From positions 68,200,001 through 68,264,000 of the forward strand of contig OZ024741.1 in NCBI GenBank assembly GCA_964016885.1: DNA of 64,000 nt. Reading direction: 5' to 3'. The notes below the pieces were generated by a model. That model was not told where the DNA came from. It searched no databases and saw only the letters and a list, made by a program, of their open reading frames with translations. Positions 6,271 through 17,509 of the stretch are shown one piece after another. Each line of letters starts with the position of its first letter. The first letter of the stretch is position 1. Source of the DNA: Eledone cirrhosa. Its lineage: Eukaryota. Position numbers and translations under genes: made by a program.

Positions 6271-6959
6271 ATACATATATATATACACACACACACACTG
6301 AGCGCGTCATAATGACGTAATGCAGACAGCTAGACATACAGACAGATATTATAAGGGCGCAACGTTATATCTATGTATCTAACTAAAAAGAAAGACTAAG
6401 AATTATATAGAGAGAACGCTAAATCGCCTAATGCGGTCCCTAGGGCATTGAAAATTTGAAATAATCTTTGCTCAAAAGACTCACAGGACCATAAGTATTA
6501 CATGTCTAAAGTTTGAAAACAATCGGTTGGATGGTTCTCAAGTTTTAGTGAGCTGACAGACAGACAGACATTCTCTGTTTTAGATATATAGACTAGCAGA
6601 AAACCGCCCCCCCCCCCAGGGTGGTTTTCTGCTATCTATATTACTAAAACAGAGAATGTCTGTTTGTCTCTCTGTCTAACCAATCACTAAAACTCGAGAA
6701 CCACCCAACCGATTGTTTTCAAACTTTACACATGTAATACTTATGGTCCTATTGAGTGTTCTGAGCAAAAAAAATCAAATTGTCAATGCCCTAGGGACCG
6801 TATTAGGCGATTTAGTGATCTCTTTTTCTCTCTCTTAGTCTTTCTCTTTTTAGATAGATACATAGATAATACGTCGCTCCCTTATAATATCTGTCTGTGT
6901 GCCTGACTGTTTGCATTACGTCATTATGACGCGATCAGTGTGTGTGTGTATATATGTAT
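6271..6959. mobile_element. About 690-bp imperfect palindrome made of two Helitron-like 5' segments
   Basis: Arms 6271-6605 and 6623-6959 are reverse complements (e.g. aatgcggtccctagggcattga / tcaatgccctagggaccgtatt); each begins tctatat..ctaaaacagagaatgtctg with caaccgattgttttcaaacttt, similar to the Helitron at 7410. Confidence 0.75.
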
Positions 6960-9787: not shown

Positions 9788-10119
9788 TATATTAATAAGA
9801 GGAATTCCAACTTTGTCTGATTTATTCGTTTTATTTACAATCCTTTAAAATATATAATGGTATTATAATGAAATAGTATGATAGAATATTAAATTCTAAG
9901 TGTTAATTGAACAAGTACTTTCATTGTTGAAAATTGCAAACTCGACTGTCACCACGTATCATGAACCTGAAGATTGCGAAAGCATGAAAGTACTTGTTCA
10001 ATTAACACTTAGAATTTAATATTCTATCATACTATTTCATTATAATACCATATTATATATATTTTAAAGGATTGTAAATAAAACGAGTAAATCAGACAAA
10101 GTTGGAATTCCTCTTATTA

Positions 10120-10507: not shown

Positions 10508-12282
<1,775 letters not shown>

Positions 12283-12314
12283 ATAGTTATGTAATAAACA
12301 ACATAAGATAATTA

Positions 12315-12375
12315 TTTCATTTACCAGTGGTTTCTTGAAAGCAAACGAAATTTGCTTTCAGTCATCAGAATGAAA
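12315..12375 (-). ncRNA. Type I hammerhead ribozyme (left arm, minus strand)
   Basis: Reverse complement of the hammerhead at 12457-12517. Confidence 0.8.
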
Positions 12376-12456
12376 AAATACTCGTGTATTTATTGACAGA
12401 GGATTTTAAAAACCATTGGTTTTAAAAATCCACTGTCAATAAATACACCAGGATTT

Positions 12457-12517
12457 TTTCATTCTGATGACTGAAAGCAAATTTCGTTTGCTTTCAAGAA
12501 ACCACTGGTAAATGAAA
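12457..12517 (+). ncRNA. Type I hammerhead ribozyme (right arm)
   Basis: Stem I tttcatt/aatgaaa; CTGATGA; stem II tgaaagcaaa-tttcg-tttgctttca; GAAA; stem III acca-c-tggt; predicted cleavage 3' of A12510 (GUA). Confidence 0.85.
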
Positions 12518-12614
12518 TAATTATCTTATCTTGTTTATTACATAACTATTAAGCTCAGTAACCTACATAGAGCACTCTTTTTTCTTGGACTTTTCCGACG
12601 GAATTACTTCCTTT

Positions 12615-13704
<1,090 letters not shown>

Positions 13705-13705
<1 letters not shown>

Positions 13706-14581
13706 ATACCTTCTCGTACGTATATTTGACTGTTATAGCGTATAATTTTTACATATTCTGGTATTTAGGGTTTGGCTATGTGTATACGGGAGTTTTGCGT
13801 CCGCGTGAGTGTGCAGGTTCGTACGTATGGTGGGTGTGTGTATATGTGTACTTCTTGTTTTAGTTGACTTACGTCTCCGAACATTCGTGTATTTATATGT
13901 AGGTATGCGTGTGCGCTTGTTATATACGTATTTATTTACTTATATACGTTTATATAATTATTTATTTATTTGTACACAAGCATACGCACACACACATATT
14001 TATATGTGCGTGGTTTTGTATACCCATGGTAAGGTTTTGCGTATGCTTGTGTATGTACGTATCTGTTTGCGCGTATGTATTTATTTGTTTCTATTACTTC
14101 TGTATTGTATTTATTTACTTTGTTCTTAACTCTGTAGCGGAGATTCATTTGGTCTCCTAGTTAGAATTTTAGTCTTCGATTTCTGCTATACCATTTACGT
14201 GGTTTTGTCTTTGCGTGTTATTTTTCTCCACGCTCCACATATGACTTATTATCTTCGTTTTTTCGTTCATTGCCAGAGAACGTCTCTATGCACCACCTAA
14301 GAGAACATTAGTCTACGACCTCTTTTATACCATAAACGTGGTTTTGTCTTTGCGCGTAATTGTTTTTCACCGCTCCTATTAATGACGTATTATTCGTTTT
14401 TTCCCGTTCTTTGCCAGCGAACGTTTCCACGAACCAAAGTATCGTCTTCCTGTCTTCCTCCGGTTGCAACGTTTTTTGAAACATCCAGTTCTGCGTTTAC
14501 AGATTGACTTTGTTAGTTTCAGAAGATCCCGTTAAGGGTGAAAGCAGCGATTCTTTGCTTAAACTTTAATCTGTTATTTTA

Positions 14582-14585
<4 letters not shown>
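13705..14585 (+). mobile_element. T/G-rich repeat terminus ending in the variant hammerhead (Penelope pLTR-like)
   Basis: 14413-14585 matches 6998-7170; internal ~140-bp direct repeat (cgtggttttgtctttgcg at 14198 and 14337); ends at a (TA)n tract. Confidence 0.5.
14515..14565 (+). ncRNA. Type I hammerhead-like fold with variant core CAGAAGA (best-preserved copy)
   Basis: Stem I agttt/aaact, extended by acagattga/ttaatctgt; CAGAAGA; stem II ccc-gttaa-ggg; GAAA; stem III agca/tgct; H = T14560. Confidence 0.65.
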
Positions 14586-14633
<48 letters not shown>

Positions 14634-14654
14634 ACATATGTGGGTGTGTATATA

Positions 14655-14830
14655 TGCTTTGCAGCATACAGTGATGGTTCTTCACGTTCTGAGTTCAAAT
14701 CCCGTCGAGGTTAGCTTTGCCTTTCATCCTTAAAGGGTCGATAAAATAAATCACCAGTAATGCGCTGGGGTCGATTTAATCGACTTTCCTCTTCCCCAAA
14801 ATTGCTGGCCTTGTGCCTGATGTCGATACA
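14655..14830 (+). mobile_element. SINE (dominant family, long variant, 5' truncated)
   Basis: gttctgagttcaaatcccgtcgaggttagctttgcc...gtcgatttaatcgactttcc...ccttgtgcc. Confidence 0.9.
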
Positions 14831-15369
14831 ATATATGCTGTATTGGATCGTGCTTCATATAGTTTTAGCATTATATAGGTGCTTATAAGCACAAATCAAT
14901 GGGTGGCAGTAGTTCCAGCTGCACGCATCGAAAGACTGGTGTAGTGGTTCTGAGAACAATGCAGCTTGGCATGGATGATCAATGCAAATTGACAATGGAA
15001 CGGCGCTCCCGCTCGAGTTAGAAGAGAACTATTGACCTTCAGGAGAAGCAACGACCCCTGATTGTATTCAGCAACCGAAACAAATATGAAGTACGCCAAA
15101 TCCAATGCTCCTAGGGGCGGCCCTGGTTCTTCTTATTTGTGAGTGTAAACTCGGCCTAATTAGATTAGATATAGGTGATATATGTTCAATTTTTCCTAAT
15201 ACTCCTAATGCACTAAATATAGTTTTATATTTATGTTTACAAAATAATTAGTCTGACATTTAGCGCAGTGAAGCAGGTTAAACTACTTATAAAAATATGC
15301 CAAACCAAGCAAAGTTCGATTCGATGAAATAACCGTTACTGTATTTAATCTCGGTTATAGTTTATATTA

Positions 15370-15447
15370 TTGGGTCGTCAAGTATGAAATTTGTACAAAT
15401 TTTGTGAACAAAAACAATTTCTACAAATTTCATACTTGACGACCTAA
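15370..15447. mobile_element. Minimal (78-bp) mariner-type MITE
   Basis: TIRs ttgggtcgtcaagtatgaaatttgta / tacaaatttcatacttgacgacctaa, TA on both flanks. Confidence 0.8.
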
Positions 15448-15909
15448 TACATAACCCTGTCCGTAACGAAAAACTACCTGGAATCTGTTTCCCTTATCTC
15501 TCCTATGCTGTTCTTATAATACCTAATATTTCTTTATGTGATATTTTTCATATCTAATAGTGTTTTCTAATTTAGACACAAGTATTAACAAAAGTAGTAG
15601 CTATATACCACAAATCATTTTTATCCGATGCTCAATCTATCAACTTTTTCGTATCTAATATTAAAAGGCATTCTCTGTGAAAGTAACAGTACGATGATTT
15701 CTGAAATGCTTTTGCAAGTGTTTATTTAATATCTTAAACGTACACTGTGTTGGCAAAATTGTTAGAACGTCAGATAGAATGTTTTGCTGTATTCTTTCGG
15801 CTCATATCTCGCTGAGGTTAATTTTGCCTTTTGAGATCGAAGAAAGTTCCAGTCCCGTGAGTAGGGACAATTCTTCTTCTATATCGCTATCTTACTTCCT
15901 CTCTTTTCT

Positions 15910-15916
<7 letters not shown>

Positions 15917-15997
<81 letters not shown>
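15917..15997. repeat. (CT)n(TA)n compound microsatellite
   Basis: Direct inspection. Confidence 0.95.
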
Positions 15998-16000
<3 letters not shown>

Positions 16001-16160
16001 ATATATCTCATATGAAATGATGCAGCCAACTTTCCACACAATACAATTAGTTAGCACCCCGAACGTTTAATTAGGAATATACTCATATACTCAGGTATTT
16101 CCTGATGTTTGTTGAGTGAGTTGGAATTTGGCCGGAGTATCGCTATTAGCTTTCTCCGAT

Positions 16161-16219
<59 letters not shown>

Positions 16220-16382
16220 AGAGTCAGGAACTCGACGGCTGAGCTCCGACCGTTTCGACAGCTAGATCCGAACTGTCGGGGTCCTCACTCTTTCCCTATT
16301 ACCCACTCTACTACCCCAAGTATCGAGTACTCTAGTGCGTTATGGTCCACCGGTATCTTACCACACCCTCTTTGTTTTATAC

Positions 16383-16440
<58 letters not shown>

Positions 16441-16441
16441 G

Positions 16442-16526
<85 letters not shown>

Positions 16527-16620
16527 GTATATAGCTCTCTCTTCTTCTCTAGAAGAAATCGGCTGTGTTCAGACCTGTGTCCAAGACACCGCTTGTATGA
16601 CTCCATCAGGAGTTAGGAGT

Positions 16621-16752
16621 ACATAAATACATACATACATGCATGCATGCATACATACATACATACATACATACATACATACATACATACATACATACAT
16701 ACATACATACATACATACATACATACATACATACATACATACATACATACAT
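16621..16752 (+). repeat. (CATA)n tetranucleotide microsatellite
   Basis: About 30 copies of cata. Confidence 0.95.
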
Positions 16753-16889
16753 AGTGTTAATGAAATAAATGAAATAATTTGAACGATATTATTGTGAAGA
16801 TACGTCACTCTTTGTGTGGAAATCAGAAATCTCTGGGTAAATATGTAAATATATATATTTACATTAATTACTCTAATAGATATTGATTG

Positions 16890-17005
16890 CTAGTTCAGGG
16901 ACAATGCCGGTAAATTTGAATGAAGGGACAGCGTTAATTAAATCAACCCCGGTACTTGACTGGTATGTTATTTTATGAAAGGCAAAGTTGACATCGGCGG
17001 GGTTT
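16890..17005 (-). mobile_element. Diverged SINE fragment
   Basis: aaccccggtacttgactggtatgttattttatgaaaggcaaagttgacatcggcggggtttg. Confidence 0.7.
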
Positions 17006-17509
17006 GGAGGTTTTTTTTTTTAAACGGACATAGAAATAAGAGAATGAATTTAAGTTGTTAACCTCGGTCTTTTATCATATGGAACATTAATGCTCTGCAA
17101 CATGAACTGTCCTCAACAAGAACTTTAACTGTCGATGGCTTATTCGGCTGTTTTAAACTCCAGATGAACCGAGGATTTTACTGCGCATACAGCTTCTTCC
17201 ACCTTACTAAAGATATTATTGAAGTATTCCTCACACACACATATACATATATATATATATATATATATATGGATCTATATATATATACGTATGGATCTAT
17301 ATACACATATATATATGTGTGTATGTATATATATATATGTATATATATATATGTGTGTGTATTATATATATATATATATTATATTCACACATGTATATAT
17401 ATATGTGTGTGTGTGCGTGCGCGTGTTTGAGATTATCCTGTGTGTGTGGGGGTGGGGTGGATCGATGGATATAAAGTGAACGCTGCATAACCGAATAATT
17501 AAGAAGTTC

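Follow-up and report, generated by a model that had tools for sequence, protein, structure and literature searches.

How does a near-perfect palindrome come to carry a hammerhead ribozyme on each of its strands, and does this arrangement do anything for the RNA made from it? The locus that raises the question lies in a 3.0-Gb assembly of Eledone cirrhosa, within the 64,000-nucleotide stretch of DNA analysed here (the window). The palindrome is centred on T12416 and has 133-bp arms (12283–12415 and 12417–12549) that differ at five pairs of positions: 12408/12424, 12400/12432, 12383/12449, 12380/12452, and 12302/12530. An earlier, sequence-only reading had described a 267-bp palindrome; the inverted arms are real, but the element is about 335 bp in length, with a 68-nt tail on the right arm that extends to ~12617 and is common to other copies of the family. 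Judged from its sequence, the locus is an ORF-less head-to-head pair of pLTRs of a Hydra-clade Penelope-like retrotransposon (PLE) in a TA microsatellite. The copy is young and dead, and its architecture is one already described in print for retrotransposons.

The descriptor scan bore out one hammerhead per strand, finding a type I minimal motif at 12457–12517 on the plus strand and its mirror copy at 12375–12315 on the minus strand; the same descriptor gave no match in 200 shuffles of window positions 1–42000. The plus-strand motif comprises a 7-bp stem I (12457–63/12511–17), CUGAUGA (12464–70), a 10-bp stem II (12472–81/12487–96), GAAA (12498–501), a quasi-palindromic stem III (ACCA-C-UGGU, 12501–09), and a GUA triplet with a predicted cut after A12510 (12510/12511). 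It has the CUGANGA, GAAA, and UH core and the stems I–III of a type I hammerhead, with 12 of 12 core nucleotides intact in both arms, and its layout is that of the Hydra-clade hammerheads (File S2 of PMC8557442). The motif had been called complete, which holds for the core and the stems but not for the first position of stem II (10.1–11.1), where a C.A mismatch (C12471.A12497) stands in place of the usual G-C pair. This is a trait of the family, with C.A in 141 and U-A in 21 of the 171 near-subfamily arms, whereas G10.1-C11.1 is highly conserved as a pair in the Schistosoma PLEs (Cervera and de la Pena, 2014; PMC4209133). Mismatches before stem II occur in published PLE hammerheads and are frequent in those of the Hydra clade (Craig et al., 2021; PMC8557442), and a U.U at 10.1–11.1 has been reported as tolerated in hammerheads (PMC3088659). 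The Rfam search that had been suggested as a check did not recover the motif: no hammerhead model matched the window at E ≤ 1 or the arm at E ≤ 10, and the scans gave only microsatellite-driven miRNA matches. Rfam misses hammerheads of this kind. A related family keeps the core, stem I, and stem III, and has stem II swapped for a longer branched helix; such retention of the core speaks for a real ribozyme in the source elements. Ribozyme cleavage was also considered as a source of the copies' 5′ ends; among the arms fetched, starts near the cut site were spread over family positions 85–98 (numbered so that window 12417 is position 1), with no peak. The hammerhead is probably the element's own dimer-type ribozyme, duplicated here as a passenger.

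Each arm aligns with the pLTR of a repeat, and full copies of this repeat contain an RT/GIY-YIG ORF that bears the Hydra motifs. Searching with the right arm yielded 1,470 first-look candidates, 40 of which were scored; exact matches in the assembly number 347 for a 22-mer of the window's subfamily and 1,149 for a 28-mer lying immediately upstream of the pLTR. In non-palindromic copies, the pLTR runs upstream via a microsatellite-rich 3′ UTR into the end of the endonuclease ORF, as seen at three independent loci (L018/L031, L022/L033, and L005/L032). A protein search with the endonuclease fragment listed 150 matches, and among the 20 of these 150 that were examined and the other loci retrieved there are pLTR-ORF-3′ UTR-pLTR units whose frames reach 715 codons (L109, L100, and L087–L093), the pLTRs lying in the direct tandem or inverted arrangement that defines PLEs. 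At L087, the same palindrome lies directly ahead of an open 715-codon frame, while at L100 and L109 a pLTR of the window's subfamily is joined to a broken ORF that is 85–95% identical in pieces to the protein P0001. The family has more than 1,000 copies, and its full elements encode an RT/GIY-YIG protein; the sequence-only reading had proposed to look at copy number and a link to a PLE ORF. Its suggestions of a Penelope-like origin, inverted pLTRs, and a dimer-type hammerhead are all supported. The window itself, when scanned, contained no RT/GIY-YIG ORF.

Assignment to the Hydra clade is based on P0001, a protein of 711 aa with the RT motifs FDIVDFY and YRDD and a GIY-YIG-like VVY...YVG. Its RWK (R37) and DKT (D114) are present in 27 of 27 aligned proteins, and CxCx5C (C556), CxxC (C659), and CxH (C690) in 27, 26, and 26 of them, respectively; there is no Cys between V575 and Y595, and so no CCHH. 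Pfam and PDB searches did not recognise P0001, and with alignment A1 they gave one weak GIY-YIG match, in 1 of 27 relatives. The Atlas neighbours of P0001 carry RVT_1 and GIY-YIG, and its identity rests on these neighbours together with the motifs. RWK, DKT, CxCx5C, CxxC/CxH, the lack of CCHH, (TA)n targeting, and hammerheads are the traits given for the Hydra clade (PMC8557442); Neptune, our first label, was dropped because the motifs fit Hydra. The target preference is seen here as well, since 80 of 100 arms adjoin a purine-pyrimidine microsatellite and 41 of 53 tight pairs have one on both flanks. As in the Hydra-clade PLEs, there is a single ORF with a C-terminal GIY-YIG; the 1-nt-centred stem III of Hydra-1_oBim (acca-a-tggt) is close to the ACCA-C-TGGT found here, and Penelope-13_HM likewise has an inverted copy with a hammerhead on the opposite strand (Craig et al., 2021; PMC8557442). 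There are also differences from what is in print for the clade, namely a tail of 68 nt rather than 30–40 nt, a stem II of 10 bp, the absence of an ORF at this copy, and a repeat unit of about 3.4–4.7 kb (pLTR to pLTR, 3.4 kb in L109 and 4.2–4.7 kb in L087–L093) compared with a length generally below 3 kb, the greater length being due to the long, microsatellite-rich 3′ UTR; the limit of 3 kb describes a tendency of the clade, without being a defining motif (PMC8557442).

Some features of the full elements deserve mention in their own right. L087, L088, and L090 have open 715-codon ORFs of high mutual identity, which suggest that this subfamily was active recently and is suited to biochemistry. 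In L087–L094, a second, diverged pLTR fragment (family 27–135, 77–82% identity) lies in the 3′ UTR about 400 nt past the stop codon and could provide a same-strand partner for a dimeric hammerhead. A short GC-rich palindromic repeat of another kind is present whole in L033 and as a half copy inside the element's 3′ UTR; it was seen in the 3′ UTRs of L033, L017, L018, and L022, and a similar piece lies near window 16300–16400. Head-to-head palindromes were also found in a related family with the same core and stem III and a long branched stem II (L235–L241 and L032:8480–8800).

At the locus itself, the short pLTR arm occupies 12284–12413 on the minus strand (96–97% to the family) and runs from the putative RNA 5′ end to a first fixed 3′ end, a candidate for one RT start site. 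The portion of the long arm that it mirrors was placed by sequence comparison at 12419–12549 on the plus strand, and this is followed by the 68-nt tail (12550–12617, plus strand), which leads to a second fixed 3′ end, a candidate for a second RT start site, recognised from ends shared across the family. Between the arms is the joint (12414–12418), consisting of one extra G per arm (C12414 on the minus strand, G12418 on the plus strand) and a 3-nt spacer, ATT (12415–12417). The tail sequence continues into the 5′ UTR and ORF in full elements (L100, L109, and L087). TA-rich microsatellites flank the element on the left (11400–12283, reaching further left) and on the right (12618–13190). Given that the left arm stops at the first fixed site and the right arm at the second, the insertion corresponds to 12284–12617. 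About 400 kb away, L035 (G000:C2:68608000–68617999) holds an inverted segmental duplicate of window 11480–17223 with the same palindrome (5.2 kb at 94%, microsatellites included).

The two end sites, 68 nt apart, are a property of the family. Among the first 100 listed of the 347 matches to the 22-mer, 50 arms ended at family position 132–133, 35 at 189–203, 4 in the ORF, and 11 elsewhere. Arms are paired unequally. In a set of 66 tight head-to-head pairs, assembled in part on the basis of a long arm and with the window's duplicate among them, 52 were short+long, one was long+long, none was short+short, two ran into the ORF, and 11 had one end elsewhere. In 40 independent loci, taken from 50 listed of 126 and picked regardless of their ends, 29 pairs were short+long and 11 had one end elsewhere, with no short+short or long+long pair. 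When both ends lay at fixed sites, 81 of 82 pairs were therefore short+long (p = 2e-23 against 0.5); among wide pairs with kilobase arms, a noisier set, the rule held in 20 of 41. The one-sided tail has already been described for PLEs: in the Penelopes of Adineta vaga, as here, pLTRs are joined head to head and one inverted pLTR bears the tail, with a 15-bp overlap at one joint (Arkhipova et al., 2013; PMC3846280). Family positions 109–133 and 187–202 are predicted to pair with the cleavage strand of the hammerhead (-5.2 and -8.4 kcal/mol), and both stretches come just before the two end sites.

Head-to-head joints are abundant in this genome, which carries at least about 200 of them. Exact-pattern searches found 36 joint loci at the window's site and 126 immediately upstream of stem I, the latter drawn from several subfamilies plus a related family, with a further 37 close to the cut site; the reversed control patterns for the three sites gave no match. 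Patterns for joints in the adjacent 3′ UTR gave 0 and 8 matches, even though the 28-mer lying there has its 1,149 exact copies; these counts mix subfamilies, and per-copy rates drawn from them are rough. In 66 joints, the arms overlapped by at least 2 nt in 29, abutted in 5, and were separated by filler in 32. Centres favoured self-complementary words (TTTTAAAA, CC-W-GG, and the stem III palindrome), CC-W-GG being the centre in 7 of the first 50 listed of the 126 loci upstream of stem I. L081 and L183 have tandem arrays of a 45-nt pLTR piece (family 1–47, about 10 copies) beside the palindrome centre, suggesting repeated template jumps by the RT.

The joints also carry a mark at the 5′ end. 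The base before the G at family position 3 is G in 26 of 34 non-contiguous arms compared with 2 of 76 arms contiguous with upstream sequence, and in copies that continue upstream the family has T at this place. The extra G was still found in 16 of 19 arms after removal by eye of 9 that the partner could explain, 5 reaching the upstream T run, and the duplicate; both arms in the window have it. In LINE-1, the cap is copied as an extra G. Reading the extra G in the same way, we infer from the DNA joints that the RNA starts at G12419. Our earlier use of BLAST alignments starting at the third base of the query as full-length 5′ ends was dropped, as most such copies run on upstream, and the 5′ end is placed by the joints and the extra G. 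A literature search for twin priming or cap copying in PLEs, made largely within openly accessible papers, returned no such paper and does not establish absence from print. The two arms of a locus are close kin: in 29 pairs, divergence was 1.8% within a locus and 3.6% between loci, and rare variants were shared by the arms in 8 cases and private in 48. The low divergence within a locus and the shared rare variants indicate that both arms come from one source.

Taking these data together, we consider it likely, with some reserve, that this ORF-less Hydra-clade pLTR pair arose in one insertion, from two target-primed cDNAs that were copied from a capped sense RNA and whose 3′ ends were then joined. 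The endonuclease would nick both strands of (TA)n, and each nick would prime reverse transcription at one of the two sites. On an RNA starting at G12419, both cDNAs would terminate by run-off at the 5′ end, one after about 130 nt and the other after about 200 nt; the cap would be copied as an extra G at the cDNA ends; and these ends would anneal at short self-complementary words or be end-joined, giving the palindrome. Because both cDNAs cover the same 130 nt, this requires one RNA with strand displacement, or else two RNAs derived from the same source gene. The Poseidon element PAc offers a parallel: in vitro, both strands of its AT-rich target are nicked and extended, and reverse transcription begins at two internal positions that set the limits of the tail (Frangieh et al., 2024; PMC11167929). 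PAc belongs to another clade, and its hammerhead overlaps the start codon whereas the present one lies about 200 nt upstream; the PAc hammerhead is dispensable for insertion and inactive without protein, and the pairing of the two ends is left unaddressed in that report (PMC11167929). For the family as a whole, we propose more tentatively that the copies record coordinated twin priming, in which both RT start sites are used once, one per strand, on capped sense RNA, with the cDNAs annealed head to head, and in which the folds that present the RNA would keep the ribozyme off; this wider proposal is almost as easy to credit as to doubt.

The main rival reading is that a single priming event gave the palindrome. 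One cDNA primed from the tail end would run off the RNA 5′ end, prime itself as a hairpin, and be copied back to the first fixed site, where it would be cut or joined to the target; the hammerhead would be a passenger all the same. Such fold-back copying explains at once the shared rare variants and the short+long rule, and a self-priming origin, with an antisense template, has been put forward for PLE palindromes of the head-to-head kind (PMC3846280). The arm-shared variants fit fold-back copying, or later arm-to-arm conversion, as well as they fit two cDNAs. What makes us doubt the fold-back route, which we regard as unlikely without thinking it far-fetched, is the structure of particular pairs and centres. 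In L121 (family 4–133 with 142–195), L075 (5–132 with 111–195), and L152 (3–133 with 83–201), each arm holds sequence missing from the other, although central deletions could mimic this. The CC-W-GG and zero-loop TTTTAAAA centres are hard to form as hairpins; in the case of CC-W-GG, two ends can pair, whereas one strand cannot fold with a 1-nt loop, which favours two cDNAs. The in vitro finding of two RT start sites in Poseidon (PMC11167929) also speaks against it. In the Adineta vaga work (Arkhipova et al., 2013; PMC3846280), self-priming with an antisense template was the preferred route, a sense template still being allowed for; the extra G and the fixed 5′ end found here would point to a capped sense RNA.

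Could the palindrome instead be a functional RNA device, acting as a switch, or selected as a supplier of siRNA or edited dsRNA that keeps the family in check? The sequence-only reading had proposed a viroid-like switch between hairpin and ribozyme, and this idea did not survive folding. The 61-nt motif alone forms stem I with a predicted probability of 0.80, which falls to 0.08 in either arm context. When the full palindrome is folded, stems I, II, and III all have a predicted probability of 0.0 (at -193.5 kcal/mol), and the hairpin is predicted at -183 to -194 kcal/mol overall, leaving one predicted fold and no second state. In growing 5′ prefixes, the predicted probability of stem II is likewise 0.0, the ribozyme fold being excluded there because a read-through transcript makes the antisense arm first. 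The hairpin is predicted to keep the hammerhead locked in such a transcript. An internal promoter is described for Penelope (PMC2377424); if this family shares it, transcripts started at the centre would give single arms without the hairpin. Two copies of the motif co-fold as a dimer at a predicted -36.6 kcal/mol, compared with -13.8 per monomer, and the dimer form fits expectation, as PLE hammerheads are weak and need dimers or protein. Schistosoma PLEs resemble the present locus in having dual minimal hammerheads on opposite strands, about 100–700 bp apart, with a palindromic helix III, and theirs have low activity and need a dimer (PMC4209133). With the hammerheads on opposite strands, a single transcript carries only one, so a dimer in cis is impossible.

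Selection on the RNA would be the other sign of a device, and the distribution of mismatches at first seemed to show it. It had been noted that the mismatches between the arms fall outside the ribozyme, which is true of the locus (0 of 5 inside 12457–12517; the chance of all five missing a 61-nt stretch of 133 is 0.044) but does not hold as a pattern. In the first pair set, mismatches were fewer inside the hammerhead (21/1761) than outside (34/1303; p = 0.005), the excess sitting at family 31–40 (15/280; window-equivalent 12447–12456), upstream of stem I and adjoining the T run, with 18/1339 at family 54–101 and 14/670 at 102–125. The difference was not replicated in 24 independent pairs (the 40 independent loci minus 16 skipped for short or divergent arms), which had 35/1128 inside and 12/576 outside (p = 0.27), and selection on the hammerhead in both arms was therefore rejected. 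Core changes were also rarer in palindromic arms (4/907) than in single arms (19/1140), and rotifer PLE copies yield small RNAs (PMC3846280). The intact cores of the two arms would suit a device too, but the core is intact in 150 of the 171 near-subfamily arms, so that intactness reflects youth. As the locus is, in addition, one of hundreds of similar joints that differ in centre and arm length, we think a functional device improbable.

It is more improbable still that the palindrome is itself mobile, moving whole as a non-autonomous element of a MITE-like or retrozyme-like type. It is small, ORF-less, and multi-copy, and some joints recur letter for letter; the recurring joints, however, lie on self-complementary words, the position and filler of the joint vary, and the inequality of the arms follows a fixed rule. 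This layout also recurs with kilobase arms (L033, L102, L103, L106, and L165) and in other subfamilies and families. Non-LTR retrozymes share with the locus a type I hammerhead, PLE pLTR ancestry, and the lack of an ORF, but they are direct tandem repeats that release a monomer between two cuts (bioRxiv 10.64898/2026.07.22.740005); here there is an inverted pair with one ribozyme per strand, and no retrozyme-style tandem monomers were found. Fold-back reads do give palindromic artefacts, but an assembly chimera can hardly be entertained given that the arms differ at five sites, their ends match the two biological end sites of the family, and the duplicate 400 kb away shows the same joint and flanks without the C12383 change. 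In four DNA runs placed on 12283–12620, other family copies dominated, and the depth at the centre was about 2–3 in one run, with no spanning piece.

Other repeats in the window were noted in passing. A second head-to-head inverted repeat (9793–10119, 86%) lies between TA microsatellites and is probably another Penelope-like family; it contains a different minimal hammerhead (9962–10000, plus strand) with CUGAAGA, a U.U before stem II, and a palindromic stem III, and its left arm is cut inside the hammerhead core. A further inverted repeat of about 640 bp at 81% occupies 6299–6937, and 42900–64000 is a 41-bp C/A-rich tandem satellite of about 450 or more copies at 95–98% identity, with an extreme strand skew.

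PLEs are the closest mobile relatives of telomerase. How they form their inverted ends and tails was named as unresolved by Craig et al. (2021; PMC8557442), and the family described here, in which full-length ORFs are open and young joints number in the hundreds, has more to offer than the locus itself as a statistical and biochemical handle on this process. Genomes of this kind can be expected to hold further palindromes with paired hammerheads. The evidence that the copy statistics contribute on PLE insertion is modest; if coordinated twin priming is true, it would settle the question of sense versus antisense templates left from 2013 and would explain the one-sided tail.
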